Assembly: GCA_051277005.1 (NCBI GenBank)
Contig: JBNMPS010000001.1
Span: forward strand, 1,337 to 65,336
Direction: 5' to 3'
DNA: 64,000 bases
DNA from: Pseudohongiellaceae bacterium
GTDB taxonomy: Bacteria; Pseudomonadota; Gammaproteobacteria; Pseudomonadales; Dasaniaceae
Both the position numbers and the translations under genes were made by a program. The notes beneath the pieces were generated by a model. That model was not told the DNA's origin, ran no database searches, and saw nothing but the letters and a program-made list of their open reading frames with translations. Below, piece by piece: positions 37,692 through 63,813 of this stretch; position 1 is the first letter of the stretch; each line of letters begins with the position of its first letter.

Positions 37692-37696
37692 CGACT

Positions 37697-42179: not shown

Positions 42180-42268
42180 TACAATAGAGCGCTTAGTTTA
42201 TGTAACTTCTTGTGTAAAAGTACTGAGGTCAACGGCTGAGCGTTGCTTGAATAATGATATGCGCATTA

Positions 42269-43779: not shown

Positions 43780-43857
43780 TGATTTATTGACTATAAAGAA
43801 CAGTGTGTTGCGGCAAGGCCGGGCTTGCTCAACAAGCAGATAGGTCGCGGCAAGCGC

Positions 43858-43950
43858 GACACATCCTTATTAGTTGGGCGGCCTGGTTTTTATGATAAAA
43901 CTGAAGAAAGTTCAGATGCCATATTACCCGTGTGCAATAATACGCATATA
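43858..43950 (+). repeat. left copy of an imperfect non-coding direct repeat (two conserved blocks)
   Basis: GACACATCCTTATTAGT (43858-43874) and GCCATATTACCCGTGTGCAATAATACGCATATA (43918-43950) recur at 47329-47346 and 47404-47436. The second block is 28/33 identical. Confidence 0.6.
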
Positions 43951-44548
43951 TTATTATATTGGTGGCAGGATAAGAGTTGCGGCGCCTGTAATGGCGGGTC
44001 GCTATTAGTTTTTTGGTCAATATCTTGCTGGTGCAGCTTTCTCCGACGTTAGGCTGTATTGAGCCTTTACCTGAGATAACTATCTTTATAAGTGTCTTGT
44101 TGCCTTTGAAATTGAATTCGATGGGGTTGCTAATTGTCGATGATAATTCTGTGATTGACTGTTGATCTCTTGGGCTTCTTGTTAAAGTGCCCTTTATCGT
44201 CCTTGGTAAGAAATATCTTGATGAATGCTCGTTTGCAGTGTGAGCCGATTAAGCAGGCTTTGGGTGTTGGCTAGACATTGCGAGTCAATAACTCTTTATA
44301 AAAATTTTTGGATGGCTATTGTGGGCCACAAAAATATTGCTGCTAGTCTAAGTAATTGGCCAGTCCTCGGGGAGCTGTCTATTGGCTAGTAGCTTGATCG
44401 CCTCTGCAAGTAGTTTGGGCTGGTTTTAGAGGGTTTGAGCTAATGCTTAATCAATGAGTGGCAGGAAGAAATATTCGTTAGCGGTTTAAATTTCTCAGTT
44501 GTGAAATCGCGGGGGGTGCCAGGAGACATTATGGGAGGTAGTGGCCAG

Positions 44549-45658: not shown

Positions 45659-45866
45659 GAATGAGCACATGAGTTTAGTGACTATTGTAATCCCCTGCTA
45701 TAACCATCAAGAGTCTGTGGTGGGCGCTGCAGAGAGCGTGCTTGAGCAAGATCATCCGGAGACGCGGAAGCTAACGGTGAGTAAACAGTATGCTGCTGCG
45801 GCAGGTTTTTCGACAGGAAAAACCATAGAGTCCTACAAAAACGATACGTGGAGGTATGTGTCTTAA
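45651..45866 (+). pseudogene. N-terminal fragment of a GT2 glycosyltransferase
   Basis: MSLVTIVIPCYNHQESVVGAAESVLEQDHPE is a canonical GT2 start, but after about 35 residues the sequence loses all GT2 similarity and terminates. waaL begins at its stop. Confidence 0.5.
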
Positions 45867-50635: not shown

Positions 50636-50685
50636 GTTAATCAATAAGACCGCTTTAATTAAATAAACACGATATAGATAATATA

Positions 50686-51132
50686 ATGAAAAATTGTACA
50701 GTAAAAAATAAAACCCAAGGTTTTACTCTCTTAGAAATGATCGTAGTACTGGTCATTATAGGTTTAATTGCCGGATTAGTCGGCCCCAGTTTGTTTAAAC
50801 AAGCCGATAAAGCCAAGGTACAAACGGCGGGCACGCAGCTTAAAATGTTGAGAGGGGCGTTACATACCTTAAGGCTCGACATGGGGCGCTTACCTTCAGA
50901 GCAAGAGGGTTTGAACTTATTAGTAAAGGCGCCTTCTGATGAGCGTGTTGCGCAATTTTGGGAAGGCCCTTATATCGACGGCCGTTTACCGCTAGACCCT
51001 TGGAAAAGAGATTATGTCTATACCTTTAAAAAGAGCGAGTTCGAGCCGTTTACTCTTTATTCATTAGGGGCTGATGGTGAGGTAGGTGGTGATAGCGATA
51101 ATAAGGATATAGGTTATTTACCGGCGCAATAA
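50686..51132 (+). CDS. gspG: T2SS major pseudopilin GspG
   Basis: Prepilin motif QGFTLLEMIVVLVIIG, then ...PWKRDYVY...YSLGADGEVGGDSDNKDI, which is the GspG-specific C-terminus. Confidence 0.9.
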   Translation: MKNCTVKNKTQGFTLLEMIVVLVIIGLIAGLVGPSLFKQADKAKVQTAGTQLKMLRGALHTLRLDMGRLPSEQEGLNLLVKAPSDERVAQFWEGPYIDGRLPLDPWKRDYVYTFKKSEFEPFTLYSLGADGEVGGDSDNKDIGYLPAQ

Positions 51133-51529
51133 TACCAGCAAAGGTTTCACCATTCTTGAGATGGTGGTTGTCATGGTGTTGATTGGTGTTGTTACATCGT
51201 TGGCTATTCCCGGCGTACAAAAAATGTACGGCAGTATGGAGCGGTCATTAAAGCGCAAAGACCTTCATGCCGCCTTAAACAGCCTGGCATTACTGGTACA
51301 AACTTCTGGTAGCCCCGTCACGTTTAAAGGGTTTCCAGCGGAGCCAGGGGAATTACCGCAGGCGTTTATTGATCGTTTAGCTGAATTGGATATCAGTTTA
51401 GCTGCAGAGGCGCCTATTTATATTAGCGCTGCAGGTTTTTGCCCCGAGGGCGGCAAACTGATAGTGACTTCAGGCCGTACGCAGTACGCGTTATCGTTGC
51501 GTGAAATAGATTGCCGCGTCGTAAAGTGA
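51116..51529 (+). CDS. gspH: minor pseudopilin (GspH-like by position); start codon unresolved (ATT 51116 or ATG 51161)
   Basis: The prepilin motif KGFTILEMVVVMVLIG is encoded at 51140-51187, but no ATG, GTG or TTG lies between the in-frame stop (51110) and the motif. The ATT at 51116 has AAGGA 8 nt upstream. Confidence 0.6.
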   Translation: MYRRNNTSKGFTILEMVVVMVLIGVVTSLAIPGVQKMYGSMERSLKRKDLHAALNSLALLVQTSGSPVTFKGFPAEPGELPQAFIDRLAELDISLAAEAPIYISAAGFCPEGGKLIVTSGRTQYALSLREIDCRVVK

Positions 51530-51652
51530 AGAGTGATAGCCAGAGTGAATGAAGAGTAAATCCAAGTGATTTTCATTGCTGTCTATGGATTGTCGTTTGC
51601 TCTCAATGAAATTACCACGCACTTGCTTGCCTCAAACATGAAAGGTTTATAA

Positions 51653-52084
51653 ATGAAGGTGCTAACCCATCAAAAAGGCTTTACGCTATTAGAAGCGGTA
51701 GTGGCGATTGCTATTTTTGCGATGGGGGCTACCGCGTTATACAGTGCGATAAACACCCACTTAAAAACGCTAGAACGAATAGATCACGTCAATACACGTA
51801 ATTCGGCCATAGAAAGCGCCATAGAGTTTATGAGCACCGTTGACCCAGTCACTACGCCGCAAGGCCAGGCCAAAATCGGTGAAATGACCCTGATGTGGGA
51901 GGCTACAGCGCCTATATATGCCGCAGATGTACTGGATGAGCAAAATATAAAAACCATTAACCAAGCCAGTTTGTTTGATACGGCGGTAAGCTTGTCTCGG
52001 CAAGGTGATCTTATCAGCGTATTCAATATTACCTTGTTGGGTGTGAATAAAGCTAAAGGGGTAGGTGATGGCTTCTTTGATTAA
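51653..52084 (+). CDS. gspI: minor pseudopilin GspI-like
   Basis: QKGFTLLEAVVAIAIFAMG prepilin motif. 143 aa. Confidence 0.75.
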   Translation: MKVLTHQKGFTLLEAVVAIAIFAMGATALYSAINTHLKTLERIDHVNTRNSAIESAIEFMSTVDPVTTPQGQAKIGEMTLMWEATAPIYAADVLDEQNIKTINQASLFDTAVSLSRQGDLISVFNITLLGVNKAKGVGDGFFD

Positions 52085-52736
52085 ATCACCTCTACAGCGC
52101 AATGAAGGTTTTACGCTGTTAGAGATGTTGGTAGTGATTATGTTGGTTTCAATGCTGGCTGGCATGTTAATGCAGGGTTTTGTTTATATGTCGGGGGTTT
52201 ACAGTGCCGTTGAGCGTCGCCAAAAACTTTCAGAATCACAGCAGCTTTTAGAGGGCTGGTTTAAACAAAGTATTTTGGGGGTGGTAAATGGTATCGATAG
52301 TAGTGCTGAGACCTCAACGTTTGAAGGGCAGCAACACTATTTTAAAGCTATTTCTTATTCGCCATTAGTGGAATGGGCATATCAACAAGAAAGCGGGCAA
52401 GCCTCGCGTTCGCCGCACTATATTGAGTGGCGCCTTGAGAAAGACGAAAAACGGCTGCGGTTAAAGTATGGCCAAGCCTTATTGCAGGGCAAAAATCAAT
52501 GGCGCTGGTTTACTATTCGAGAATGGCCGTTTGCCGAGGCTGATTTTCAGTACTTATATAATGGCCAGTGGTTAGGTGAGTTCCCCCCGGCTAGAAGTTT
52601 TAATGAGGTGCCTCCACTGCTTCCGCAAGGTATAGCCATTAGTATTCGTGGTTTACGCATACCTTTTGATCTATTTGTTGCTACCAAAAGTGCGTCCAGT
52701 GCTTATTATCCACCCAGAGAATACGGTGGCTTTTAA
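52065..52736 (+). CDS. gspJ: minor pseudopilin GspJ-like
   Basis: NEGFTLLEMLVVIMLVSML prepilin motif. 223 aa. Confidence 0.72.
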   Translation: MMASLIKSPLQRNEGFTLLEMLVVIMLVSMLAGMLMQGFVYMSGVYSAVERRQKLSESQQLLEGWFKQSILGVVNGIDSSAETSTFEGQQHYFKAISYSPLVEWAYQQESGQASRSPHYIEWRLEKDEKRLRLKYGQALLQGKNQWRWFTIREWPFAEADFQYLYNGQWLGEFPPARSFNEVPPLLPQGIAISIRGLRIPFDLFVATKSASSAYYPPREYGGF

Positions 52737-53788
52737 TGACTAATAAAAAAACACAGTCAGGTTTTGTATTGGTTACAGTGCTGTGGGTATTGGTCATCAT
52801 GCTAATGGCCTTAACCGCATTCACTGCATGGGTCGATAATGCCCGAGAGCAAGCCAGTAGCCGGCAAGAGTTGATCAATGCAAAAATAAAAAGCCATAGT
52901 CTATTCTCTCGGGCGTTGTTTACCTATATGACAGGCAAGCAAGCAGCCAGTGGTATTTCATGGCCTGCCGAAGGTGGGGCGACGGTGGTAATTCCCGGTA
53001 ATATCAATATCGCCGATTTTTTTGATGTACCCACCTTATTACCAAACAGTGTAGAAGCTGGTTTTATGCAAATGAATGGCCGGGTAATAGATGCGGGCGG
53101 TGGCTTGAGAATCATGATACAAGACCGGGGCGGATTAATAGGTTTATCTTTTTTAAGAAAGGCATCGGTGTATAGCGGTATCAATAGTATCGGGGGCGGC
53201 AACTACACCGTTGATGAGCTAAAACATACGCTACAAGATTACCATGATAAAAATAGCTTTCGCTTGGCAAAGGGTGCCGAGGGGCAACAATACAAACAGG
53301 CTGGCTTGCCCGCCCCCGCCAATGGTTATTTACGCAACCCATTACAGCTTCGCAGTGTTATGCATTGGCACACATTGCTAGGTGAGGTGTCTGATGCTTG
53401 GATTTTGCAAAACTTCAAAGTAGAAGGTGGCGCTGCGGTTAATGTAAACAGTGCACAAATTGATAGCTTGTCGTTGGTGGTGGGCAGTGATGATGTGGCA
53501 CAGCAAATAGAAAATAAAAGGCAGTTAGGTGCCATTAATAGTATTTTTCATATTCCGCTGCCGCCAGAGGACTTTGAAAATAATTTTTTTACCATGATGC
53601 CTGCCGATGGTTTGCGCTTTTGGAGCTGGCATATAAACCATCCCACTGCGCAAGTTTATGATGTACAATTCAACGCCCTTGCGCCAGGACAAAGCGCCTG
53701 GGTTGTGAACTGGATGACAAGAGTAACACTACCTGATGAATTGGCTCGACGCACAGCGGTTGAAATTAATCACCCGTTTTTCCACTAA
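52736..53788 (+). CDS. gspK: minor pseudopilin GspK-like
   Basis: The N-terminus QSGFVLVTVLWVLVIMLMAL has a Gly cleavage site and lacks Glu+5, as in GspK. 350 aa. Confidence 0.7.
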   Translation: MTNKKTQSGFVLVTVLWVLVIMLMALTAFTAWVDNAREQASSRQELINAKIKSHSLFSRALFTYMTGKQAASGISWPAEGGATVVIPGNINIADFFDVPTLLPNSVEAGFMQMNGRVIDAGGGLRIMIQDRGGLIGLSFLRKASVYSGINSIGGGNYTVDELKHTLQDYHDKNSFRLAKGAEGQQYKQAGLPAPANGYLRNPLQLRSVMHWHTLLGEVSDAWILQNFKVEGGAAVNVNSAQIDSLSLVVGSDDVAQQIENKRQLGAINSIFHIPLPPEDFENNFFTMMPADGLRFWSWHINHPTAQVYDVQFNALAPGQSAWVVNWMTRVTLPDELARRTAVEINHPFFH

Positions 53789-54839
53789 ACACGGCTTCCT
53801 TTCGGGGGATGAGTTGGTTGAGCTGGAGGCGAGTAGCCTAACCCCTAGGCTGATTATTGGACGTGACCAATGCCGCTACGCGGGCATTGATTTTTCACAT
53901 GTGCCTAAAAATAAACGCCAGCAAGCACTAATACATCAGCTCACAGCACTCAGTATGTGGCAAGAAACGGCACATTGCGTTGCCTGGCAGGGTGGTTTTG
54001 CACAGCTGTGGTTTTGGGATGCTAGTCAAATTCGTCGCATTCAAAAGGCACACAAAAATCACGGTCTAACACGTCTACGGTCGCCCTTGTATTTAGCCGA
54101 AGCCGTTTATTGGCAAAAGCCAGCAGCGGCAGGGGTGTATTTATGTCACTGTCATTCCGGTTTCGATCTTCAGAATTGGCAAAATGGCTACTTAGTGGCA
54201 AGCCAATGGTTTAGGCGTAGCCCTGAACAAACACAAATAAAACGATTTGCTCGTTCGCAAGGTCTTGCGGATGCTAGTGCGCAAAGCTTGGTGCCGGTAA
54301 CAGAACTATTGCCATGGCCGGGGGTGGTACGTCCCCTTAAGACTTATTGGTTAGAGCGTAAACAGCAACTGGCGATAGCGTTTTGTTCCGCGGTCGTTTT
54401 TTTAATGAGTTTACAATTAATTGCTATTGCTCAATGGTCGGCCACCGAAAATGATATCCAGCACGAGATCACTAAGCTTGAATCTTCAGCAAAAAATTTA
54501 CTGGCGGCGCGTGGCAAAGCACGCAGGGCGTCAGTGGCATCGGGCAATATAGTGCAGTTATTTGACATGCCCGACACGTTAGCGAGTCAGTGGGCCGTTT
54601 TGCAGCGTATACCTAGCGAGCTAAACCTATCATTAAAAAAATGGCAGCGTAATATTGATAGTGTTGAAATCATTGTTGAGGGGCAAATTGTTGATACCTT
54701 AAGTTTAGTGAAAGCGCTCAATAAAAAAGGCATTACTGCCGCCAAGGTGGAGCCATCACGTATCAATGGCCAATATAATATAGCGTTAACGATCCAGCCG
54801 CAGGCCATAACAGCTGTTAAAAAAGAGGCTGTATTATGA
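53736..54839 (+). CDS. gspL: GspL-like assembly protein (assigned by position and topology; start uncertain)
   Basis: A cytoplasmic domain of about 210 aa, a single TM (LAIAFCSAVVFLMSLQLIAIAQW), and a periplasmic domain. The 53-nt overlap with gspK suggests a later start (for example TTG 53814). Confidence 0.5.
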   Translation: MNWLDAQRLKLITRFSTKHGFLSGDELVELEASSLTPRLIIGRDQCRYAGIDFSHVPKNKRQQALIHQLTALSMWQETAHCVAWQGGFAQLWFWDASQIRRIQKAHKNHGLTRLRSPLYLAEAVYWQKPAAAGVYLCHCHSGFDLQNWQNGYLVASQWFRRSPEQTQIKRFARSQGLADASAQSLVPVTELLPWPGVVRPLKTYWLERKQQLAIAFCSAVVFLMSLQLIAIAQWSATENDIQHEITKLESSAKNLLAARGKARRASVASGNIVQLFDMPDTLASQWAVLQRIPSELNLSLKKWQRNIDSVEIIVEGQIVDTLSLVKALNKKGITAAKVEPSRINGQYNIALTIQPQAITAVKKEAVL

Positions 54840-55444
54840 GTTGGCAGGCCCAGTGGTATAAGGAACGGCATAAACATCAAGCACAAATAGTGAGTGAGTG
54901 GCGAGCCAATAAGCGCTTACAGCTAATCACTCTTATTTCATGTGCGCTGTTTGTGGTGTGGAGTATGGTGCAGCTCGAGAGTTGGCGCTCGGCTAACGAG
55001 GCCAGTGCCCGAGCGGCTTTTGCAAAATTAGAAGATATTAAAATAGCCACGGGTGAAAAAAACTGGCCGCAAAGGGCTGCGCAGGCCAAAAAGCAGCTAG
55101 CCAGCTTGCGGGGGAAACTCTGGCAGGCACAAAATGAGGGTGAGGCTCAAGCGGGGCTTCGCGATTGGATAGAGCTACAAGCGCGCACCCACGGTGTTGC
55201 CATTGATGCGATAAGTGTTGATGTGGGCAGGGTGCAGCAAAATGTAGGGCTGCACCCCGTAAGAGCAGAGCTAAAAGGCCAATACAGCGTAGGTGCGTGG
55301 CAAAAATTTATGCGAACATTAGCCACGACCAAGCCTGCCGTTATTGTTGAGTACGATGAGCTGAGTTTTGCGCGCGCGAAAAAGCCCGCGTATCGTATCA
55401 GCGTCATCGCTTGGTTTGAGCTGCAAGATAAAGGAGGGGCCTAA
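54836..55444 (+). CDS. gspM: GspM-like assembly protein (assigned by position and topology)
   Basis: 202 aa with a single N-terminal TM (LQLITLISCALFVVWSMV). ATGA overlap with the preceding gene. Confidence 0.5.
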   Translation: MSWQAQWYKERHKHQAQIVSEWRANKRLQLITLISCALFVVWSMVQLESWRSANEASARAAFAKLEDIKIATGEKNWPQRAAQAKKQLASLRGKLWQAQNEGEAQAGLRDWIELQARTHGVAIDAISVDVGRVQQNVGLHPVRAELKGQYSVGAWQKFMRTLATTKPAVIVEYDELSFARAKKPAYRISVIAWFELQDKGGA

Positions 55445-56010
55445 TGCGCTTGCTGCTACCTTTATTGGCGTTGGCCGCATTGTTTGATGTTATATTTGCT
55501 TGGCTAAGCTACCCCGATTTACACGATGAGGGTGATTTACAGCAATATGCCAAGCCTTGGCAGCCCGTTAAGCTGCCAGAGCAAAGCCTGCCCTCTATTA
55601 ATAAGCTCACTGCGAGTGGTTTTTGGGGTGAATCTGATGGCCAGCAAGCGGCGGGCTCAACCATCCAAAGTGCCAAAGCGCTGGCCGAGACCGAAGCAAA
55701 AGTGGTTAGACGGCGTGTGCGCGCCATTGTAAAAGGGGCTAGCGGCAAGCAAGTTTTATTTGAAGTGGGAAAAAAATTCCAGCACTTTAGTGTTGGCGAT
55801 AAATTGCCGGGCACCCAATGGACCTTGTTAGGCATTAAAAAGTACAGCTTAACCTTAATAAAAAACGAGGCTGATAGCGTGCCCCGTGAGCTAAGGCTTT
55901 ACGGCGATAACAGCTTGGTCGCGCTTGGTGTCGCTGAGCCTAAAGCTGAGAATGCTGAGCCTCAAGCCCCCCTGCAGCAAGTGCCGGTGGTAAACGTTAC
56001 CGGGCCATAA
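55444..56010 (+). CDS. gspC: GspC/XpsN-like protein with an HR (PilP-like) domain, no PDZ
   Basis: N-terminal TM, then VRAIVKGASGKQVLFEVGKKFQHFSVGDKLPGTQWTLLGIKKYSLTLIKN, the pattern of the secretin-binding HR domain. It sits immediately before the secretin, as XpsN does. Confidence 0.5.
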   Translation: MRLLLPLLALAALFDVIFAWLSYPDLHDEGDLQQYAKPWQPVKLPEQSLPSINKLTASGFWGESDGQQAAGSTIQSAKALAETEAKVVRRRVRAIVKGASGKQVLFEVGKKFQHFSVGDKLPGTQWTLLGIKKYSLTLIKNEADSVPRELRLYGDNSLVALGVAEPKAENAEPQAPLQQVPVVNVTGP

Positions 56011-56151
56011 AGCGGCTATCGATTACAGGCAGCTATAAAATAGAAGGCCGCAGCAAAAAGTGTGGTGGAGCAAAAGGGCTATTACGTTAGTCATAGGCCA
56101 TTTAGCGGCACATAGCCGCTCAATATAATATTTCAATAAGAGTTTAATACC

Positions 56152-58317
56152 GTGATAAAACCGTTAACGGCACTGAATAAAACAGGGTTATCAAAGGCAA
56201 GGAGGCGCCTAGCAGTCAAGGCGCTAGCGGTCAGTTTATTAGGGCTTCATGCAGCATCATGCACCTTAATTCCCCCTGAAGAAATGCGCCCTCCGGCTCG
56301 TTTGACATCGACAGCGTCTCAGCCTGCAGGCGCTATGGATGTTGCTGAAAAAGCCGTAACTGCTGAAAAAAATCGCTTTGAGCGGTTACCCTCAGCGGCC
56401 ATTGATACCACGCCCCCCCGTTTGATTAATAAAAACGACATACTATTTAGCCCTAATGAGGAGGCTACCATTAGCCTAAGTGTTGATGGCTTACCCATTC
56501 CGGCTTTTATTAATGAGGTTTATGGCAATCAATTAGCCTTGGATTTTGAAATAGCCCCCGCTGTTGCCAATAAAAAAGATTTGGTGACATTACGGGTAAC
56601 CGAGCCCCGCAATAAACACAGTATTTTTCAACTGTCCCGTGATGTATTGGCCAACTATGGGGTATTAGTTGTCAAGCAGGGCGATAGGTTACGCTTTATA
56701 TTGGGCACGGGTCCCGAGGCTAATACCGAGATACCCCTTATCTTGACGGGCAGTGCCCTTCCCAGTGTCCCTTCAACCCACCGCCCGGTTTTTTTGATTC
56801 GCAGCTTAAATATTATTAGCAATAGTGATGCTTACAGCATGCTGCGCATGGTGTTTGATAACAAAAAGCTTAAAGTAGAGCGTGATAATAGCCGCAATGC
56901 GGTGAGTTTAAGGGGCGCACCTGACGTAGTAAAAAGCGCCGCCGAAATGCTCGAGCTTTTTGACAAGCCCAATATGAAGGGGCGGTACTCCATGCGTATT
57001 GACCCAGTTTTTACGGATGCCGAGATATTAGCCGAAAATATAGAAAAAGCCATGGCCGCCCAGGGTTACGATATTGGCGGCAAAAATAAAAATACCACGC
57101 TCATGCCCATTAAAGAGTTGAATGCGCTGTTTGTGTTTGCCCCCAGCGAGGGCGTTTTGGCGGCGGTACGTAAATGGACCAAGCAATTTGATAAAGTGGT
57201 TGCCAAAGCCAATCGTGAGGATGGCTTTTATTGGTATGCCGTTAAAAACACCAGCGCCGAGCAATTGGCAGAAACACTCAACGCGGTAATGGGTGGCGCT
57301 AGAAGCGGAAATACAAGAAATAGATCGGCGGGAGCTACTGGTGCGTCTAAAGCTTCTCAGCCTGTTGGCGGAATAAAAAGCGCGGGGGCCAGTGTGCAGG
57401 GTGATTTTGTGGTTGATCAAGCCCGTAATATGTTGCTGTATCGCGGTAAAGCCGAGCGCTGGCAAGAGATAATGCCACTCATTCAAGATTTGGATAAAGC
57501 CCCCATGCAGGTGATGGTAGAGGTGGTGGTAGCCGAGGTTCGGTTGAATGAAAGTATGGAGTTTGGTATTGAGTGGACTTTAAACAATCGCAATGATTCT
57601 GAGGGAAGTTTAAGTGCTTTATTTGGTAGCAGCAGCGGTACATTAGGGGGTGGCGGCCTATCTTGGACATCGCTATCAAGCTCGGGCTCAACCCGTATGG
57701 CTTTAAATGCTTTGGCAGGCGATGATAACGTCTCTATTTTACAGACACCTCGGATATTAGTGCGTAGTGGTGAAAGTGCCAGCGTGACCGTGGGCGAAAA
57801 AATACCGGTGGTTACCTCAGGCAGAGCAGAGGACCTAGTGGACGACGGCGACACCGCGATTACCCAGCAAGTAGAGTATCGTGATGTGGGTATTAGCTTG
57901 TCGGTACAGCCCACCGTTTATTCCGATGGCCGCATTGATATGGTGATATCGCAAGATGTTAGCTCAACCGCTGGCCAAACCTTAACGCCCATTATTGCTA
58001 ACACCAGCTTGAGCACCAGCCTAAGTCTGCAAGATGGTGGCTCGGTGTTGTTAGCGGGCTTAATTAAAAAGAGTCACTCTAAAGGAGGCTCAAGAGTGCC
58101 CTTTTTAGGTGATATCCCCTGGTTGGGGCAATTGTTTAGCTCCGATAGCTCTAGTGCCGAGCGCACCGAGCTCATGATATTAATCGTACCCTACTTAATT
58201 AAAGAGCCAGGCCAGGCCGAGGCCTTAACCCGCTCATTCCGTAAACAGTTACAGCTTCACCCGGGCTTTGATGAAAGCGTTGGGAAGGATGGTGAGGGTG
58301 ATAGCCCTAAGCAGTAG
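56152..58317 (+). CDS. gspD: T2SS secretin GspD-family (possible lipobox AASC)
   Basis: Secretin C-domain: LQTPRILVRSGESASVTVGEKIPV, VPFLGDIPWLGQLFS, ELMILIVPYLI. N-domains lie upstream. GTG start. Confidence 0.9.
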   Translation: MIKPLTALNKTGLSKARRRLAVKALAVSLLGLHAASCTLIPPEEMRPPARLTSTASQPAGAMDVAEKAVTAEKNRFERLPSAAIDTTPPRLINKNDILFSPNEEATISLSVDGLPIPAFINEVYGNQLALDFEIAPAVANKKDLVTLRVTEPRNKHSIFQLSRDVLANYGVLVVKQGDRLRFILGTGPEANTEIPLILTGSALPSVPSTHRPVFLIRSLNIISNSDAYSMLRMVFDNKKLKVERDNSRNAVSLRGAPDVVKSAAEMLELFDKPNMKGRYSMRIDPVFTDAEILAENIEKAMAAQGYDIGGKNKNTTLMPIKELNALFVFAPSEGVLAAVRKWTKQFDKVVAKANREDGFYWYAVKNTSAEQLAETLNAVMGGARSGNTRNRSAGATGASKASQPVGGIKSAGASVQGDFVVDQARNMLLYRGKAERWQEIMPLIQDLDKAPMQVMVEVVVAEVRLNESMEFGIEWTLNNRNDSEGSLSALFGSSSGTLGGGGLSWTSLSSSGSTRMALNALAGDDNVSILQTPRILVRSGESASVTVGEKIPVVTSGRAEDLVDDGDTAITQQVEYRDVGISLSVQPTVYSDGRIDMVISQDVSSTAGQTLTPIIANTSLSTSLSLQDGGSVLLAGLIKKSHSKGGSRVPFLGDIPWLGQLFSSDSSSAERTELMILIVPYLIKEPGQAEALTRSFRKQLQLHPGFDESVGKDGEGDSPKQ

Positions 58318-58501: not shown

Positions 58502-58529
58502 TTGCAAAGTGAAATAAACTACCTACAAT
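58502..58529 (+). promoter_or_regulatory. near-consensus sigma-70 promoter TTGCAA-N16-TACAAT
   Basis: Read directly. It predicts a leader of about 100 nt containing the CGAGGCGCCTCG and TACTTACGTAAGTA palindromes, then AAGGA-N8-ATG. Confidence 0.55.
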
Positions 58530-58638
58530 GCTGTAGCAGTAGCAGGCGAGGCGCCTCGTCTACGTTGCTTGAAGCGCTCCAATAAAAGCGTTAAAGATTT
58601 TACTTACGTAAGTACATAAAACGATAAAGGATAAAGAA

Positions 58639-60324
58639 ATGAAGAACATCTTGAAAAAGACGACCTTGGCATTAGCCATTGCTGCTGTATCTACCGGTGC
58701 ATTTGCAGGGGATTTGGATTACACGGGTGCTAACGATGTAGCCCTTACGCTAGCTAACGAAGTTTTTGGTACTGGCTCTGGAGATACATTGGTTGCAATT
58801 CCTGATGTGACATTCACTCTAGATGTTACTAAAGATGACATCGATGGTACAGCCGGTGAAGTTGCAACTGTTAAGTTAACTTTAGATAGTGGAGCTGTAT
58901 TCGGTGAAGATTTGTCAGACATCGACAAATGGGCTGATTCATCAACCATCTTAAACTTTGTGAATGGCACAGGTACTGAAACTGTTGGCGGATCGGGCTC
59001 TCCATTTGCTACTGCTACGGCTAACTTCGCAACTATTACTGTTACTCAAGGTGGTGCAATCGGCGATAACACCGTAACTTTTGAGATCACTTCACAAACT
59101 GCAGGTGAAATTTTAACTTCTGTACGTGTTGCTGGATTTAGAGTTAAAGAATTGACTTCTGCACTTGAGCGTGGAGTTTCCAGCCCTGCGGTCAAACTAG
59201 GCGCTGAATTCCGTAACGTTGACACTGCTGTTACTGATACTGATACTGCATTAACTATTTTGACGTCACAAGACGGTGTTGAGCTGGAAGGCACGTTAAC
59301 TGATTATGACGATGCTGTTGTAGGCTTACGTGCTCGTATCGATGTTGCTGATACTGAATTGTCTTTCACTGGTGATGCAGTTAACGGTGCTGTAGGTACT
59401 GGTGCTGCACAAGATTTTGACGAGACTGATAATGTTGCTTTCGTAACTTTAGGTAACTTGCAAGTTAACCGTACTACTTATCAAGATGGCGTACCTGCTA
59501 CATTGAATGTTAAAAAAGAAGACGCTAACGACTTTGATTTTAACGGTTCAGATACTATTACTGTAGCGCTTACTTCTTCATCTGCACTAACAAGCTACGA
59601 TGAAGTTTACCTACGTACTGACGTTGGTGGTCTAGGTGTTCAAGACTGTGACGACGCGTCTGTTGGTGCTGACTTTGTTGGTTCTGCAGTATTGGGCGAC
59701 GACACAATGGTTGAGTTTGACCTGTCTGGTGAGTCTACAGCTGCTTTAGCAGTTGGTTATGAAGTATGTGCGGTAGCTGCTGGAACTAGCGCTATCCCTG
59801 AGTCTTCTTTTACAGCTTCTTTAACGGTTGAGTACTTTAACCCTCGTTATACTGATTCTGAAGACACGTTGTCTTACGGCAATATCTTACGTAACGGTTG
59901 TCAAGTAACATTGTTCAACGTACCTGCGCCTGATTCTCCAGACTCAGCTGCAATTCGTTTAACTAACGTTTCTGAAAAGCCAGGGGCTGTTCGTGCATTT
60001 ATGTACACACAAGACGGTACTCAAATCGACTTGAACTCTGAGCTAGTTGCTTCTTTAGCACCACATGCGACAGTTGTACTTAAGTCTAACCCAGGCCAAA
60101 CTGGTAACGGTTACTTAGGTGATGCAATGCCTACATATGCTGCTTCTTTGAATGCAGACGGTCGTAACCGTTTAGTTATTCAAGGTGCTTTCCCAGCATG
60201 TGAAGCCTTAGGTCTTGTTCGTACTCCAGCTGGCGTATTAACTAACCTAACTAGCACCACTTACTCAGGTGATGCGACTCGTTTAGGTGCTCAAAACAAT
60301 GGTACTTCTAACACTTCTAACTAA
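58639..60324 (+). CDS. abundant-type secreted/surface protein, 561 aa, acidic and Thr/Gly/Asp/Val-rich (S-layer-like candidate)
   Basis: Sec signal MKNILKKTTLALAIAAVSTGAFA|GD. Codon usage is strongly skewed to GGT, GCT, ACT, GTT and TCT, and Arg is CGT in all but one case. It has its own promoter and a strong terminator, and 4 Cys. I cannot name the family. Confidence 0.85.
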   Translation: MKNILKKTTLALAIAAVSTGAFAGDLDYTGANDVALTLANEVFGTGSGDTLVAIPDVTFTLDVTKDDIDGTAGEVATVKLTLDSGAVFGEDLSDIDKWADSSTILNFVNGTGTETVGGSGSPFATATANFATITVTQGGAIGDNTVTFEITSQTAGEILTSVRVAGFRVKELTSALERGVSSPAVKLGAEFRNVDTAVTDTDTALTILTSQDGVELEGTLTDYDDAVVGLRARIDVADTELSFTGDAVNGAVGTGAAQDFDETDNVAFVTLGNLQVNRTTYQDGVPATLNVKKEDANDFDFNGSDTITVALTSSSALTSYDEVYLRTDVGGLGVQDCDDASVGADFVGSAVLGDDTMVEFDLSGESTAALAVGYEVCAVAAGTSAIPESSFTASLTVEYFNPRYTDSEDTLSYGNILRNGCQVTLFNVPAPDSPDSAAIRLTNVSEKPGAVRAFMYTQDGTQIDLNSELVASLAPHATVVLKSNPGQTGNGYLGDAMPTYAASLNADGRNRLVIQGAFPACEALGLVRTPAGVLTNLTSTTYSGDATRLGAQNNGTSNTSN

Positions 60325-60366
60325 GTTGTGTAAAAGCTATCATTCTGTAGCTTAGGCTATAGGCAG

Positions 60367-60394
60367 AAAGGCTCCTTCGGGAGCCTTTTTTTTT
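60367..60394 (+). terminator. strong rho-independent terminator
   Basis: AAAGGCTCC-TTCG-GGAGCCTTT followed by T9. Confidence 0.85.
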
Positions 60395-60440: not shown

Positions 60441-60995
60441 ATGGTTGAAAAGCCCTTTATATTTGTGCATATTAATAAAACCGGCGGCAGCAGTATTGAA
60501 CGGGCGTTGGGACTGGAGCTAGAGCATAAAACCGCCCGTGAATACATCGCGGATCTGGGTGAAGGTGTCTGGGAAAAACAGCACACCTTTAGTGTGGTAC
60601 GAAACCCCTGGGATAAAGTAGTGTCACACTACCATTGGCGGGTTAAAACAAACCAAACAGCGCTAGCTGAAAGCCCCATTGATTTTTGTGAATGGGTGAA
60701 AAGGGCCTTTGGCAATAACGAACCCGGCTATTACGATAAACCCAAGATGTTTATGCCCTCAGAGCAGTGGCTTATAAATAATAAAGGTGAAATTGCAGTT
60801 AACACGATAATGCGGTTTGAAAATCTCATTAATGATTTTGACGCCTTGTGTCGGCAGTTGGGTGTGGTGGCAACATTACCCCATTTAAAAAAAACAGAGC
60901 GGACTCATTATCAGCAATATTACAACGACGAAGCATGTAGTATTATTGCGTTATGGTTTAAAAATGATATTGAGCAGTTTAATTATCAGTTTTAG
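60441..60995 (+). CDS. sulfotransferase family protein
   Basis: FIFVHINKTGGSSIERAL (PAPS-binding 5-prime-PSB-like loop) and VVRNPWDKVVSHY (3-prime-PB-like). Confidence 0.7.
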   Translation: MVEKPFIFVHINKTGGSSIERALGLELEHKTAREYIADLGEGVWEKQHTFSVVRNPWDKVVSHYHWRVKTNQTALAESPIDFCEWVKRAFGNNEPGYYDKPKMFMPSEQWLINNKGEIAVNTIMRFENLINDFDALCRQLGVVATLPHLKKTERTHYQQYYNDEACSIIALWFKNDIEQFNYQF

Positions 60996-61043: not shown

Positions 61044-61700
61044 ATGTTTAAAACAATACAACTCAAATGGCCATTACTGGCTTTATTTATTGTGGTGATT
61101 ACTGGCTTGCAAAATGCTTGGGCTATAGAGCCAAAGCCAAAGCCAGAGCCGGTACCCGTAGTGGACTTTGAAAAAGGCAAATACTACAAAACTTTAGATA
61201 AACCTATTGTGGGTGCTACGGCTCCTATAATGGAGTTTTTCTATTTTGGCTGTAAAACATGTTACCAGCTAGTACCGGCACTGGCGCAGTGGAGCCATGA
61301 AACAGGTATTGGCGTGACCTTGGTTCCGGTGCACAGTGACAACGCTATGGTAGATGCCGCGCGCTTGTATCACACCTTTGCAGAAATGAATGTATTGAGC
61401 AGAATGTATGAGTTGGGTTATGTGATTTTTCAAACAGATAAATCAGAATTAAAAGGTGAGGCGCGTATTAATGATTACCTAGAGCGCCACAGAGTGAATA
61501 AGGAACGTTTTTGGAAAATATGGAATAGCGATAAAGTAAATAAACGTCTAGCAGGCTCATTAGCATTAACTCAACAAGCGAAAATATATAAAACTCCGAC
61601 CTTTTTAGTGAAGGGTCGCTATATGGTGAACATAGATGCTATTACACATGTAGAGCACTTATTTCAACTATTAGAGTATTTAAATAAAAAGCCTGATTAA
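61044..61700 (+). CDS. DsbA-family thiol:disulfide oxidoreductase paralogue (active site CKTC)
   Basis: Signal peptide, FFYFGCKTCYQL, and the cis-Pro loop KTPTFLVKGRY. Confidence 0.75.
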   Translation: MFKTIQLKWPLLALFIVVITGLQNAWAIEPKPKPEPVPVVDFEKGKYYKTLDKPIVGATAPIMEFFYFGCKTCYQLVPALAQWSHETGIGVTLVPVHSDNAMVDAARLYHTFAEMNVLSRMYELGYVIFQTDKSELKGEARINDYLERHRVNKERFWKIWNSDKVNKRLAGSLALTQQAKIYKTPTFLVKGRYMVNIDAITHVEHLFQLLEYLNKKPD

Positions 61701-61818: not shown

Positions 61819-63813
61819 GTGAAAACAGAGTATCGAGCCGATATTGATGGCCTAAGGGCTATAGCTGTATTATCGGTATTTATGTATCACCTAGGTTTAG
61901 CCTCATTTAGCGGGGGTTATGTGGGTGTTGATATTTTTTTTGTCATTTCTGGCTTCCTAATAACGCGTATTATTACCCGTGATATAAAACGTGGGCAGTT
62001 CTCGCTGCCTGCCTTTTATGCGAAGCGTTTCAAACGTATTTTGCCAGCCTTAGCCGCAATGGCAGTGGCCTGTATGGTGGTTGCCTATGCCTTACTTGCG
62101 CCTGAAAATTTAGCCGAACTGGGCGATAGCGCAGTGGCGATGGCGTTGTTTGGTTCAAATATATTTTTCTATCTGCAGGCGGGCTATTTTGATGCGCCCG
62201 CTGAAATGAAACCGCTGTTGCATACCTGGTCGTTAGCGGTAGAGGAGCAATACTATTTATTGTTTCCGCTGATGATGATGGGGTTAGCAAAGTGGAATCG
62301 TAGTCGTTATACCCGTTGGTTACTAATATTGTGCTTAATATCTTTCGTGGTTGGGCTTGTTCAAAGCTATAGCGGCAACCAATCGGCGGCATTTTATTGG
62401 ATTACTTCACGGGCCTGGGAGTTATTTTTAGGCAGCTTACTGGTTGTTCCTTTATTCCCCTTACCAACAACAAAAGCGCTTAGAGAGCTGTTATCGCTAT
62501 TGGGGTTAACCTTAATCGCTGTGAGTGTGTTTGGTTTTGATAATCAAACGGTTTTTCCTGGTGTTGCTGCGCTAGTGCCAACAATAGGCGCCGCTTTGAT
62601 TATTTATGCGGGTTTAGGTGGCTCATCAATAGTGGGCCGTCTACTCAGTGTTAAACCATTAATGTTATTAGGTTTAATATCGTATTCATTATACTTATGG
62701 CATTGGCCAATTATTGTATATGCCAAGTACTATTCAATTACTCCCCTTGAGTATAAACAGATGGCAGGTATTGTCGTGGTCGCGTTGATTGTGTCGTGGT
62801 TATCATGGCGCTATGTGGAAACACCGTTTAGAAAAAGCCAGCAAAATCAATCTAAGGTATTGGTTGTTTCATTGACGGTATTAGCCGCCTTGATGGTTGG
62901 CGGCTTAGTGCTGAGTATGAATAAAGGTTTTGAAGGTCGATACCAAAACGTCACGGCGCATAATAGCGATCAACAATGGCTGCATTGGACCGCTTGCCAA
63001 AATGTTAGCACAAGAATTAGACAAGGGCAGCCGCTGTGTGTAATGGGGAGCCAAAACGCTAAACCAACCTTTTTATTATGGGGTGATTCACATGCTAAGT
63101 CGATAGCTGTCGCTTTTGATACCGCGGCACAAGAAAATGATATTAAGGGTCAAATAGCCATTCAAACAGGCTGCCCACCACTATTAGGTATAGAGCGTAC
63201 TGGTCGAACACGCTGCCATCAATTTAATCAAACGGTATTAACCTATTTAATAAATAACCCTGACATTAAAACTATTGTGTTAGCCGCAAGGTGGGCCTTA
63301 TCAACAAAAGGCACACGTTATAAGCAGGAGGCAGGCAAACAAGTAACGTTAATTGCAATTGATGATGGCGGCAATAAACAAGTCGTTAAAAAAAGTCAAA
63401 ATAATGTAGGCCTTTTTAATAAAGGTTTACGGCGAACGGTAAAACAATTAACCCAGTTAGGCCGGCAGGTGGTAATTGTAGGCCCTATACCAGAGGTTGG
63501 CTACCATGTGCCTGCAGCAGAATTTGTGGCATCGCGCACCCAGCAAGATGTAAATAAACTGATTGCACCGTCAAAACAAGAGTTTAAAAAACGCACCCAA
63601 GAGGTAGATGTTGTATTCTCACAATTGAGTACACATAATCACGTAAGTATTATTGAACCGGCCAAAAAACTTTGTGAATACGAAGTTTGTAATGTTTTTT
63701 TTAATGGCAAAGTGCTGTACCGTGATGACGATCATTTATCGACCGATGGCGCACGCTATATAACACCGTTAATCAGCGAGTATTTTTACCAGCAACATAA
63801 GGGCCTGCAATGA
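61819..63813 (+). CDS. OafA/YrhL-type acyltransferase-3 with a C-terminal SGNH domain
   Basis: YRADIDGLRAIAVLSVFMYH..VDIFFVISGFLIT, about 10 TM segments, and a C-terminal LWGDSHA SGNH motif. GTG start. Confidence 0.87.
   Translation: MKTEYRADIDGLRAIAVLSVFMYHLGLASFSGGYVGVDIFFVISGFLITRIITRDIKRGQFSLPAFYAKRFKRILPALAAMAVACMVVAYALLAPENLAELGDSAVAMALFGSNIFFYLQAGYFDAPAEMKPLLHTWSLAVEEQYYLLFPLMMMGLAKWNRSRYTRWLLILCLISFVVGLVQSYSGNQSAAFYWITSRAWELFLGSLLVVPLFPLPTTKALRELLSLLGLTLIAVSVFGFDNQTVFPGVAALVPTIGAALIIYAGLGGSSIVGRLLSVKPLMLLGLISYSLYLWHWPIIVYAKYYSITPLEYKQMAGIVVVALIVSWLSWRYVETPFRKSQQNQSKVLVVSLTVLAALMVGGLVLSMNKGFEGRYQNVTAHNSDQQWLHWTACQNVSTRIRQGQPLCVMGSQNAKPTFLLWGDSHAKSIAVAFDTAAQENDIKGQIAIQTGCPPLLGIERTGRTRCHQFNQTVLTYLINNPDIKTIVLAARWALSTKGTRYKQEAGKQVTLIAIDDGGNKQVVKKSQNNVGLFNKGLRRTVKQLTQLGRQVVIVGPIPEVGYHVPAAEFVASRTQQDVNKLIAPSKQEFKKRTQEVDVVFSQLSTHNHVSIIEPAKKLCEYEVCNVFFNGKVLYRDDDHLSTDGARYITPLISEYFYQQHKGLQ

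Follow-up and report, generated by a model that had tools for sequence, protein, structure and literature searches.

The stretch of DNA analysed here (the window; 64,000 nucleotides) carries an open reading frame (ORF) for a protein of 561 residues, which we regard as a candidate S-layer structural gene. The gene, the signals that surround it and the two regions of its product to which we refer below are the following:

58502-58529, + strand: sigma-70-type promoter, TTGCAA-N16-TACAAT, matching the consensus at 9 of 12 positions
58538-58569, + strand: 5'-proximal, GC-rich leader stem-loop, -14.4 kcal/mol
58603-58612, + strand: invariant palindromic box CTTACGTAAG, 10 nt, 26 nt upstream of the ATG
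58626-58631, + strand: Shine-Dalgarno sequence AAAGGA, read from the sequence, with AAGGA kept in the aligned loci
58639-60324, + strand: candidate S-layer structural gene, 561 aa
58639-58707, + strand: signal peptide, Sec-type, with predicted cleavage between MKNILKKTTLALAIAAVSTGAFA and GD
59869-60273, + strand: C-terminal beta-sandwich domain, residues ~411-545, the most conserved segment
60367-60394, + strand: intrinsic terminator, AAAGGCTCC-TTCG-GGAGCCTTT followed by a T-run, with a 9-bp stem and a TTCG loop

Upstream of this gene, eleven ORFs of a type II secretion system (T2SS) extend from 47712 to 58317 in the order E-F-G-H-I-J-K-L-M-orf2-D, after which the 561-aa gene follows:

47712-49433, + strand: T2SS ATPase, SpsE/GspE-like, in the SpsE position as first gene of the operon (Pfam T2SSE, E 7.8e-132)
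49430-50635, + strand: inner-membrane platform protein, SpsF/GspF-like (Pfam T2SSF, E 3.9e-45)
50686-51132, + strand: major pseudopilin, SpsG/GspG-like (Pfam T2SSG, E 3e-31, plus N_methyl)
51161-51529, + strand: minor pseudopilin, H-like (size and order as SpsH; no Pfam match)
51653-52084, + strand: minor pseudopilin, I-like (size and order as SpsI)
52065-52736, + strand: minor pseudopilin, J-like (size and order as SpsJ)
52736-53788, + strand: pseudopilin, GspK/SpsK-like (weak match to T2SSK_1st, E 0.0016; same position in loci L001-L003 and L023)
53736-54839, + strand: accessory L-like gene, assigned by position alone
54836-55444, + strand: accessory M-like gene (22% identical to A. hydrophila SpsM, E 4e-12)
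55444-56010, + strand: accessory Orf2/C-like gene (weak matches to Aeromonas Orf2, E 0.019, and T2SSC, E 0.028)
56152-58317, + strand: outer-membrane secretin, SpsD-like (Pfam Secretin, E 8.8e-43, plus Secretin_N)

Two of the three minor pseudopilins of the H-, I- and J-like set contain an N_methyl motif, and the secretin is 36% identical over its full length to SpsD of A. hydrophila (E 1e-141). The same order of eleven T2SS genes is found 5' of the homologue in Alkalimarinus, Stutzerimonas, Cellvibrio and Aeromonas. The window thereby shows the Aeromonas-type arrangement, in which the structural gene lies directly 3' of an E-...-D T2SS operon, and both the order and the sizes of the genes match.

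On its upstream side the locus borders on LPS-core genes and waaL, and on its downstream side it is followed by genes for a sulfotransferase and an acyltransferase. Positions 34479-45658 contain heptosyltransferase, WaaP-kinase and GT4 genes, and the genes closer to the T2SS operon and the S-layer candidate are:

45848-47068, + strand: O-antigen ligase, WaaL-type, at the end of the LPS-core cluster bordering the T2SS operon (Pfam Wzy_C, E 1.9e-19)
60441-60995, + strand: cytoplasmic sulfotransferase without signal peptide (Pfam Sulfotransfer_2, E 1.2e-6)
61044-61700, + strand: periplasmic DsbA paralogue with signal peptide and CKTC active site (Pfam DSBA, E 2.1e-10)
61819-63813, + strand: AT3-SGNH O-acyltransferase, polysaccharide acylation (Acyl_transf_3, E 1.2e-31; SGNH, E 1.2e-56)

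Among the seven loci of the core family, all contain sulfotransferase genes, all have a DsbA gene just downstream of the S-layer gene, and six have Wzt downstream; the window stops at 64000, short of any Wzm/Wzt gene. The DsbA gene is absent from the loci of the Alteromonas group, the Betaproteobacteria and Aeromonas, and it is, together with the sulfotransferase genes and four invariant cysteines, a trait specific to this clade.

The signal peptide, recognised by inspection, consists of a positively charged N-region, a hydrophobic core and a cleavage motif between AFA and G, features that are kept across the family alignment; an N-terminal signal peptide for Sec (or Tat) is what is expected of type II secretion substrates, which reach the T2SS as folded intermediates from the periplasm. 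The mature protein comprises 538 residues (55.4 kDa) with a pI of 4.05 and is dominated by T (12.6%), A (11.3%), G (10.2%) and V (9.7%); it is also rich in D, contains 0.6% M, and its 25 K and R residues (4.6%) are opposed by 75 D and E residues. These values bear out a preliminary description of this DNA, in which the protein had been called acidic, rich in T, G, D, V and A, and poor in basic residues. The same description had counted exactly four cysteines, correctly, but had placed them within residues 338-522, one position too far; they are residues 337, 377, 421 and 521, and all four are invariant in the family. Apart from these cysteines, the 55.4-kDa protein has the composition typical of S-layer proteins, which are acidic, 40 to 200 kDa in size, rich in hydroxylated and small hydrophobic residues, poor in basic ones and nearly or wholly free of Cys and Met. 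Four conserved cysteines are unusual among S-layer proteins.

Comparisons with Pfam, NCBIfam and PDB sequences returned noise only (Phage_Gp17, E 0.03; StfF, E 0.12; no PDB chain), and PF19526, the Slr4 family, was not matched at E<=10. The earlier statement that the protein belongs to no recognisable family thus holds for curated models, but it does not hold for an uncurated superfamily that includes VapA/AhsA- and Slr4-type proteins. There are about 95 to 100 close homologues, all named 'hypothetical', the best match in the species-representative genome collection being 68% identical, and the hosts of this clade are Cellvibrionaceae, Oleiphilaceae, Alkalimarinus, Stutzerimonas, Alteromonas and some Betaproteobacteria. 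The precomputed PF19526 domain occurs in none of the approximately 95 close homologues and is carried only by the distant P0096. At a gathering threshold of 25 bits for PF19526, two remote relatives score above the limit (P0096, 26.6 bits; P0232, 40.3 bits). The profile of the core family (A4) aligns over its full length with that of an Slr4-type group (A3; hhalign 99.94%, E 2.3e-36, 452 columns), whose members match PF19526 at 22 to 40 bits and hence pass or approach the threshold. A3 in turn aligns with A5, which represents 455-aa proteins of A. hydrophila (hhalign 99.94%, E 1.6e-36); the gene sizes at the locus of these proteins reproduce the published SpsE...SpsD-VapA-Wzm-Wzt table (PMC4413209). 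Because the direct comparison of A4 with A5, the Aeromonas VapA profile, was not significant (hhalign 12.7%), the link to VapA is transitive via A3. The canonical Slr4 of Pseudoalteromonas tunicata (EAR28894), whose sequence comes from an OCR'd supplement, was not detected with profiles A4 and A3; the broad and diverse profile A2 reached 22.2 bits against it (E 9e-7; none of 300 shuffles as high), a score to be read together with the high compositional bias and the OCR origin of the sequence. At E<=0.001 the superfamily search gathered 581 clusters at 50% identity, some of which share the C-terminal module alone, and the cluster members of ten remote relatives carried no informative names. Judged by these profile comparisons, the 561-aa protein is a member of a large uncurated superfamily that includes S-layer proteins of the VapA/AhsA type and of the Slr4 type.

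The AF2 model of the protein (pLDDT 88.6) consists entirely of beta-sandwiches. Compared as a whole chain with the PDB by Foldseek, it yields generic matches to multi-Ig adhesins, pilins and integrins with a TM of about 0.2, and such generic Ig-like matches identify the class of fold without indicating a function. The C-terminal domain contains two of the four cysteines (C421 and C521) and has the motif G.LTN(M/L)T at its end. It is the region common to the remote members of the superfamily, and large secreted proteins can contain as many as four copies of it. Modelled separately (pLDDT 80.5), it matches the ASRT/TM1070 fold with a probability of 1.0 and a TM of up to 0.74; the ASRT superfamily is predicted to be sugar-binding (PMC2739507). 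A fold search, as proposed in the preliminary description, thus points to predicted beta-sandwich domains and to no catalytic fold. This bears on whether the protein might be a secreted enzyme or a subunit of a fimbrial or pilus fibre, which we consider very unlikely: T2SS substrates are often hydrolases and the top full-length Foldseek match is a CFA/I pilin fusion, but the matches in Pfam, NCBIfam and PDB sequences include no catalytic family, the model has beta-sandwich domains only with a whole-chain TM to pilins of about 0.2, neither chaperone-usher nor sortase genes were found near the locus, and the invariant residues of the family are mostly G, N, F and T besides the structural cysteines, with no recognisable catalytic set.

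The codon choice of the gene had been described as sharply unlike that of its neighbours, and this is borne out by an effective number of codons (ENC) of 35.1, the lowest in the window, against 42.5 to 61 for the 45 other ORFs; the codon usage of the gene is not that of an average ORF. GC3 is 0.278 compared with about 0.45 for the neighbours, and T3 is 0.48. Arginine is encoded by 15 CGT and a single AGA, and GGT (62%), GCT plus GCA (83%), ACT (63%), GTT plus GTA (94%) and TCT (61%) dominate their respective families. Despite the drop in GC3, the two-fold codons ending in a pyrimidine are shifted towards C, as AAC (80% vs 41%), TAC (62% vs 39%) and ATC (56% vs 27%) illustrate; pooled over Phe, Tyr, Ile and Asn, the C-ending fraction is 0.60 vs 0.33 (odds ratio 3.1, p=6.5e-7). 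Since these codons move towards C while GC3 falls, the bias exceeds both chance and a shift in composition. With the 561-aa gene itself as reference set, the window being without ribosomal-protein genes, a codon adaptation index (CAI) ranks cytochrome c, amt and the major pseudopilin next, all of which are plausibly well expressed. At all 18 homologous loci the homologue has an ENC below the median of its neighbours and C-enriched Phe, Tyr, Ile and Asn codons, and at 15 of them, including that of Aeromonas vapA, its ENC is the lowest of the neighbourhood.

The unusual codons could alternatively mean that the gene was acquired horizontally, and recently, from a donor richer in AT, instead of reflecting high expression. 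Such an origin would fit the low GC3 of the gene relative to its neighbours, the somewhat AT-rich genes downstream (GC 0.39-0.43) and the description of Aeromonas S-layer clusters as insertions in the O-antigen cluster. It predicts, however, more AAT, TAT, ATT and TTT, the reverse of what is seen; moreover, the bias is confined to a single ORF and spares the co-inherited T2SS genes, the same gene-specific bias recurs across taxa at 18 loci with GC3 values from 0.30 to 0.68, and the CAI ranking that takes the gene as reference also speaks against it. We therefore hold this origin to be extremely improbable. A bias in this direction points to translational selection and not to foreign AT-rich DNA, and the gene would, as its codons suggest, be highly expressed.

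The expression signals are conserved as well. Matches of promoter grade (9 of 12 positions) are not enriched in the region, with 6 found vs 3.7 expected, but TTGCA...TAnAAT is invariant in all eight aligned loci, between which the rest of the flanking sequence has diverged, and this agrees with the promoter proposed earlier, as does the AAAGGA with the good Shine-Dalgarno sequence noted there. The two leader palindromes of the preliminary description were likewise recovered. The first, CGAGGCGCCTCG (58547-58558), is the core of the 5' hairpin, an equivalent of which is found at the same place in seven of nine core loci with some compensatory changes; analogous 5' hairpins are present in the Alteromonas and betaproteobacterial groups. 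This hairpin may serve to stabilise the mRNA. The second palindrome (14 nt, 58601-58614) has the CTTACGTAAG box as its core, and the box is present as one exact copy per 21.7-kb locus in all nine core-family loci, 21 to 26 nt from the ATG. It forms no stable RNA fold or hairpin, and presumably it is a binding site for a protein or regulator. The idea of a single long structured leader was not upheld: the fold of the whole leader is no better than that of shuffled sequence (z=-1.1) and the box lacks a stable hairpin, so we prefer two discrete elements. No Rfam family matched the leader, and a literature search on S-layer leaders and mRNA stability returned nothing usable. The 9-bp-stem terminator at the 3' end is well supported by its fold (z=-3.9), which none of 200 shuffled sequences equalled, although the run of nine T described as following the stem does so only in part, as three of them sit inside it. 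A simple terminator scan missed this terminator and gave an intragenic false match instead.

Taken together, the remote but significant homology, the Aeromonas-like locus, the recurring codon bias, the conserved promoter and leader and the non-catalytic predicted fold lead us to propose, with a probability of roughly 0.7, that the gene encodes the S-layer protein of this cell, a divergent member of the superfamily of VapA/AhsA- and Slr4-type proteins. The same lines of evidence agree with the original suggestion of a major surface or secreted structural protein. As an S-layer protein it would be among the most abundant proteins of the cell and form a paracrystalline two-dimensional lattice, for which the extreme codon bias and the strong, conserved expression signals are indirect evidence. 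The main competing explanation is that the T2SS exports an abundant matrix or adhesin protein, which is released or loosely bound to the cell, has a biofilm or polysaccharide-binding role and forms no paracrystalline S-layer. In its favour, the matching PDB folds belong to adhesins, pilins and biofilm proteins with Ig-like domains, secreted subtilases and further large extracellular proteins also contain the C-terminal module, Slr4 is both shed and a major component of the matrix, and many hosts, for example Cellvibrio, degrade polysaccharides. Homology and locus architecture, however, point to proteins proven to form S-layers, and a dedicated secretion system of eleven genes together with an extreme codon bias fits the amounts required for a coat. 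We thus judge a matrix or adhesin role without an S-layer to be rather unlikely, although the two roles are not mutually exclusive and may both hold.

If the gene encodes an S-layer protein, we envisage the following course of events. The gene would be transcribed as a monocistronic unit from its own conserved promoter to the strong terminator, signals that are visible in the DNA and from which activity is deduced; the predicted start of transcription is at about 58536-58538. In the leader of ~105 nt the 5' stem-loop probably stabilises the mRNA, and the CTTACGTAAG box beside the ribosome-binding site probably binds a regulator. Optimised codons would make translation fast; the bias itself is seen, and high expression would be its consequence. 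The precursor is predicted to cross the inner membrane via Sec and to lose its signal peptide by cleavage behind AFA, at residue 23. Two disulfides, probably C337-C377 and C421-C521, would form in the periplasm with the aid of the DsbA encoded two genes downstream, and the folded string of beta-sandwiches would then cross the outer membrane through the Sps-like T2SS, whose eleven genes are present directly upstream and whose relation to this substrate is suggested by analogy with Aeromonas. At the surface the protein would assemble and be held non-covalently on LPS polysaccharide, probably by its ASRT-like, putatively sugar-binding C-terminal domain. The LPS polysaccharide of this clade is probably sulfated.

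A more specific version of the S-layer proposal, which we put forward tentatively and consider possible though doubtful, is that the clade possesses a distinct variant of the T2SS-exported S-layer system. The S-layer protein would be stabilised by disulfides, matured by a DsbA from its own locus and anchored through a lectin domain of ASRT-like fold. The anchor would be an O-polysaccharide that is sulfated and produced by the neighbouring sulfotransferase, APS-kinase and Wzm/Wzt genes; a regulator acting on the CTTACGTAAG box in the mRNA leader would control synthesis of the protein, and VapA/AhsA and Slr4 would be branches of one superfamily. In this version the superfamily would extend across Gamma- and Betaproteobacteria and into some Desulfobacterota, whereas VapA/AhsA and Slr4 are separate in the cited papers.

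S-layers determine how bacteria meet phages, predators, surfaces and hosts, and yet these proteins diverge so far that annotation fails to recognise them, which leaves most Gram-negative lineages without a known coat protein. Our analysis assigns a probable S-layer function to about 100 'hypothetical' proteins (hosts include Cellvibrio, Alkalimarinus, Oleiphilaceae, Stutzerimonas stutzeri, Alteromonas and some Betaproteobacteria) and ties this family to both experimentally studied families of T2SS-dependent S-layer proteins. It also opens the hypotheses of a DsbA dedicated to an S-layer protein, of a sulfated glycan anchor and of a leader box as a point of control; the cassette of promoter, leader and terminator may serve as a strong expression module in marine and soil Gammaproteobacteria.

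One of the closest known systems is that of VapA/AhsA and Sps/Aps in Aeromonas (A. hydrophila AH-1 serotype O11 and the A-layer of A. salmonicida), in which spsE-...-D is followed by the S-layer gene as it is here; deletion of vapA abolished the S-layer in A. hydrophila (PMC4413209). The Aeromonas locus is set in an LPS O-antigen cluster with an ABC-2 (Wzm/Wzt) exporter, and its layer is tethered by LPS; the window locus has the LPS-core, ligase and polysaccharide-modification genes named above as its setting. In both systems the structural gene is preceded by a long intergenic leader of its own and shows the strongest codon bias in its neighbourhood. The secretins of the two systems share the 36% identity noted above, the M component is detectably homologous, and the S-layer proteins themselves show full-length homology through the intermediate family, their direct match being the 12.7% given above. 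Unlike the window protein, VapA is about 100 residues shorter, has no cysteines and is not followed by a DsbA gene, the Aeromonas leaders do not share the leader elements of the window, including the CTTACGTAAG box, and the glycan genes of the window differ by including sulfotransferases.

Slr4 of P. tunicata (EAR28894; PF19526) resembles the window protein in being a secreted, acidic protein of ~55-60 kDa from Gammaproteobacteria; its gene, too, comes right after a T2SS cluster, which is conserved and presumably dedicated to it (PMC7821379). Most published hosts of Slr4 belong to Pseudoalteromonas, Idiomarina, Colwellia, Shewanella and Vibrio, whereas the clade of the window has the hosts listed above, and Slr4 has been threaded as an RsaA-like beta-helix whereas the AF2 model of the window protein shows beta-sandwich domains. 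NpdA, a Sec-exported S-layer protein of ~52 kDa in Paracidovorax/Delftia and some Cellvibrionales (PMC10765051), is similar in having no curated domains, in being encoded downstream of a gsp (T2SS) cluster and in occurring in Beta- and Gammaproteobacteria. Kinship with NpdA (P. citrulli WP_011797163) was considered and rejected, as hhalign gave 2.4% with the signal peptide alone aligned, and none of the superfamily profiles matched NpdA, all scores being negative.

RsaA of Caulobacter crescentus is likewise an abundant, acidic S-layer protein, which is held by the LPS O-antigen and whose gene is linked to a dedicated secretion system, but it lacks a signal peptide, leaves the cell by a type I system and is built as a Ca-binding beta-roll/beta-helix. 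The window protein differs from it by its Sec signal peptide, the T2SS and the predicted beta-sandwich domains. The principle of an S-layer exported by a T2SS is already known; the window gene extends this principle and is not a new type of system.

The ORF at 58639-60324 encodes a 561-aa protein whose Sec signal peptide (MKNILKKTTLALAIAAVSTGAFA, with GD following the cleavage site) is typical, and the mature protein of 55.4 kDa is acidic (pI 4.05; 25 basic versus 75 acidic residues) and rich in T, A, G, V and D. Its four cysteines (residues 337, 377, 421 and 521) are invariant in the alignment of the core family, that is, its close relatives; the preliminary description had counted them correctly and numbered them off by one. 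The gene and its surroundings comprise the following features:

47712-58317, +, T2SS operon of eleven genes, upstream of the S-layer candidate gene
58502-58529, +, promoter-like TTGCAA-N16-TACAAT, 9 of 12 consensus positions
58538-58569, +, 5' hairpin, -14.4 kcal/mol
58547-58558 and 58601-58614, +, two perfect palindromes in the sequence
58626-58631, +, SD sequence
58639-60324, +, S-layer candidate gene, 561 aa
60367-60394, +, strong terminator hairpin, fold z=-3.9
60441-60995, +, cytoplasmic sulfotransferase, downstream of the S-layer candidate gene
61044-61700, +, periplasmic DsbA with CKTC active site, downstream of the S-layer candidate gene
downstream of DsbA, +, AT3-SGNH acyltransferase

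The T2SS operon begins with E, F and G, continues with three minor pseudopilin genes, K and the L-like and M-like genes, and closes with a small Orf2/C-like gene followed by the secretin gene. With an E of 1e-141, the secretin shows 36% identity to Aeromonas SpsD; for the M-like protein, homology to SpsM was found (E 4e-12). Alkalimarinus, Stutzerimonas and Cellvibrio have the same T2SS arrangement upstream of their homologs, and a like arrangement upstream of Slr4 has been described in the literature. Farther upstream lie LPS-core genes and an O-antigen ligase. Inside the LPS-core cluster, two stretches of 1.5-1.8 kb (40463-42269 and 43012-44501) contain no ORF of at least 120 aa, the former with a GC content of 0.39-0.42, below that of the surrounding cluster; they may be DNA of recent acquisition or hold genes in decay. 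Between a PhoU-like/phosphate-transporter pair and glnE lies a second T2SSE-family ATPase (28426-30252, +), whose N-terminal domain is of the c-di-GMP-binding MshEN type, with no adjoining secretion or pilus genes, and a tRNA-Arg (CCG) at 1108-1184 (-) is the only Rfam/ARAGORN match in the 64-kb window.

The protein had been described as belonging to no recognisable family, which holds for curated models (Pfam, NCBIfam and PDB sequences), none of which recognised it, and does not hold for remote profile links, which connect it over its full length to the VapA/Slr4-type S-layer superfamily. A word-indexed search returned 98 relatives, almost all between 530 and 585 aa long and without exception unnamed or "hypothetical"; among their sources are Alkalimarinus coralli, Cellvibrio, Stutzerimonas stutzeri and Alteromonas. 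One distant relative just passed the Pfam Slr4 model. An exhaustive profile search extended the set to 581 representative clusters (E<=0.001), and 8 of 71 sampled remote matches were Slr4 matches. In profile-profile comparisons, the core family aligned over its full length with the Slr4-model-positive group (99.94%, E 2e-36), and this group in turn aligned with the 455-aa proteins of A. hydrophila (hhalign; 99.94%, E 1.6e-36, full-length). The latter can be identified as the S-layer protein because their locus, with the VapA gene at 10001-11368, reproduces gene for gene, and with almost equal residue counts, the published order of strain AH-1 (SpsE-F-G-H-I-J-K-L-M-Orf2-SpsD-VapA-Wzm-Wzt-WbbB), in which deletion of vapA removes the S-layer (PMC4413209). 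The full-length alignment between the two groups indicates that VapA-type and Slr4-type proteins form one superfamily; this is not mentioned in the Slr4 literature examined and may already be known. A search of Aeromonas VapA itself with PF19526, the Pfam Slr4 model, gave no match. Since the direct comparison of the core family with the A. hydrophila group is weak (12.7%), the canonical P. tunicata Slr4 is reached by the broad superfamily profile alone (22 bits, E 9e-7, 0 of 300 shuffles as high), and NpdA, a third T2SS-linked S-layer family considered as a relative, was rejected as unrelated by sequence, the profile evidence places the protein outside Pfam Slr4 in the strict sense, as a new branch of the wider superfamily.

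The codon usage of the gene is strongly biased. Its ENC is 35.1, compared with 42.5-61 for the 45 other ORFs of the window, and its GC3 is 0.278 versus about 0.45. GGT, GCT/GCA, ACT, GTT/GTA and TCT dominate and arginine is encoded by CGT (15 codons) with a single AGA, exactly as noted beforehand. The bias is confined to this gene; the neighbouring secretion genes rank with the least biased ORFs. Such a pattern could also be attributed to horizontal transfer of an AT-rich foreign gene. However, a merely AT-rich gene would favour AAT, TAT, ATT and TTT, whereas codons for Phe, Tyr, Ile and Asn, the amino acids of Sharp's index for translationally selected codon bias, end in C at a frequency of 0.60 here versus 0.33 elsewhere in the window (odds ratio 3.1, p=6.5e-7). 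When the test was repeated on 18 homologous loci from other organisms (GC3 0.30-0.68), including the known Aeromonas S-layer gene, the homolog had the lowest ENC among its neighbours at 15 loci, the exceptions being three GC-rich Chitinimonas loci with one lower neighbour each; its ENC was below the neighbours' median, and the same C-enrichment was present (p from 6e-3 to 1e-25), at all 18. The direction of the bias and its recurrence across taxa thus contradict horizontal transfer as the explanation.

The promoter, both palindromes, the SD and the terminator reported earlier were all located in the window. A promoter match of 9/12 is by itself unremarkable (6 sites found, 3.7 expected), and the whole leader folds no better than shuffled sequence (z=-1.1). 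Alignment of the intergenic regions of eight loci (the window, Alkalimarinus, an Oleiphilaceae genome, Cellvibrio species and Stutzerimonas) revealed three conserved islands amid diverged flanks. In the promoter island, TTGCA and TAnAAT are invariant and their spacing is fixed. A GC-rich 5' hairpin starts a few bases past the predicted transcript start. Seven of the nine core loci keep it, showing a few compensatory changes; the evidence from covariation is modest. A 5'-terminal stem-loop as mRNA stabiliser is an established theme, for example in ompA, and long leaders are reportedly an established theme for S-layer transcripts. The third island is a decamer palindrome, CTTACGTAAG (58603-58612), invariant in the core family. 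It occurs once per 21.7-kb locus, 21-26 nt 5' of the ATG (about 0.02 copies per locus expected by chance), and was found in every core-family locus with upstream sequence examined (L001-L006, L008, L009 and L018, at about 9965-9979); it was not found in the Alteromonas-group, Chitinimonas/Sulfurimicrobium or Aeromonas loci. Because it formed no stable RNA hairpin in folding and an Rfam search yielded no matching family, we interpret this box as a putative recognition site for a dimeric protein.

The more distant homolog groups possess conserved leaders of their own, again with a 5'-end hairpin. The Alteromonas/Ningiella/Aestuariibacter loci (L011-L017) have a different common leader of about 190 nt, almost fully conserved, which starts some 200 nt before the homolog (near 9920-10004, in L016 near 3271). 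It has the promoter TTGACT-N17-TAGAAT and a long hairpin (-16 kcal/mol, z=-2.9) of sequence GCGCATCAATT...AATTGATGCG; ahead of the SD lie two small palindromes, GCTATAGC and TTATAA. In Chitinimonas (L019, L020, L022) and Sulfurimicrobium (L021), TTGACA...TATACT is directly followed by the perfect palindrome GTCTTTCGAAAGAC, the unit lying some 70-110 nt before the homolog; a 5'-end hairpin is thus conserved across genera while the rest of the leader differs.

A confident AlphaFold2 model from 95 sequences (pLDDT 88.6, pTM 0.82) consists entirely of beta-sandwich domains. Whole-chain matches in the PDB were generic Ig-like arrays of adhesins and pilins with low TM-scores, and this fold search returned no enzyme fold. 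An enzyme reading was without support, with no catalytic-family match and no enzyme fold in the model, as was a pilus reading from family searches or model. The C-terminal domain (approximately residues 411-545; 59869-60273) is the most conserved segment and the part that remote relatives have in common with the window protein; large secreted subtilases and other extracellular proteins carry as many as four copies of it. In large secreted proteins (P0164, P0171, P0190, P0197, P0203) it stands alongside subtilase, PKD, FG-GAP/Calx-beta or RCC1 domains, with 3-5 stretches per protein matched in the profile search; matches to the Lamin-tail-domain were weak. It has the look of a mobile extracellular module not yet curated. 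Modelled alone (pLDDT 80.5), it resembles the beta-sandwich of the Anabaena sensory rhodopsin transducer/TM1070 (probability 1.0, target-normalised TM <=0.74), a superfamily for which sugar binding has been argued (PMC2739507), and this makes the domain a candidate LPS-anchoring module.

All seven core-family loci examined have a DsbA gene immediately behind the S-layer gene, as well as sulfotransferase genes; in the window, a sulfotransferase gene sits between the S-layer candidate gene and the DsbA paralogue, which in L001-L006 and L009 is found at about 11790-12500. The Alteromonas-group, betaproteobacterial and Aeromonas loci examined lack this DsbA linkage; Alteromonas or Chitinimonas homologs equally contain cysteines, yet no adjoining DsbA was found. 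Most core-family loci also encode Wzt and APS kinase. The sulfotransferase genes downstream in L001-L006, L009 and L017 are often accompanied by APS kinase, a TauE-type exporter and Wzm/Wzt, and this company suggests a sulfated O-polysaccharide or capsule, unusual for these bacteria.

Taking gene content, homology, synteny, codon bias and conserved cis-elements together, we consider it probable (roughly 0.7) that the 561-aa protein is an S-layer protein. The gene would be transcribed alone from a strong conserved promoter, the 5' hairpin would protect the mRNA, and the CTTACGTAAG box might control it. Efficient translation, presumably yielding an abundant product, would be followed by Sec export and periplasmic folding with two disulfides, of which the last two domains would hold one each and for which the linked DsbA may provide aid. 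The dedicated Sps-like T2SS would then secrete the folded protein, which might assemble into a lattice coating the cell, anchored to LPS polysaccharide, in this clade probably sulfated, via the C-terminal sugar-binding-type domain. The main alternative, a matrix or adhesin protein that forms no lattice, shares ground with the S-layer reading, since Slr4 too is shed into the matrix.

Gram-negative S-layer proteins that have a T2SS of their own and are encoded beside LPS genes are a known kind from Aeromonas and Pseudoalteromonas. The novelty is one of membership: the protein represents a sizeable clade, so far without annotation, in gammaproteobacterial lineages other than these. Four features set the clade apart, namely conserved cysteines predicted to form disulfides, the DsbA linkage, a glycan cluster rich in sulfotransferase genes and the invariant box in the leader. 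In contrast to Aeromonas VapA, which has no cysteines, the window protein has four invariant ones, and the core-family loci include a linked DsbA, whereas the Aeromonas locus does not.
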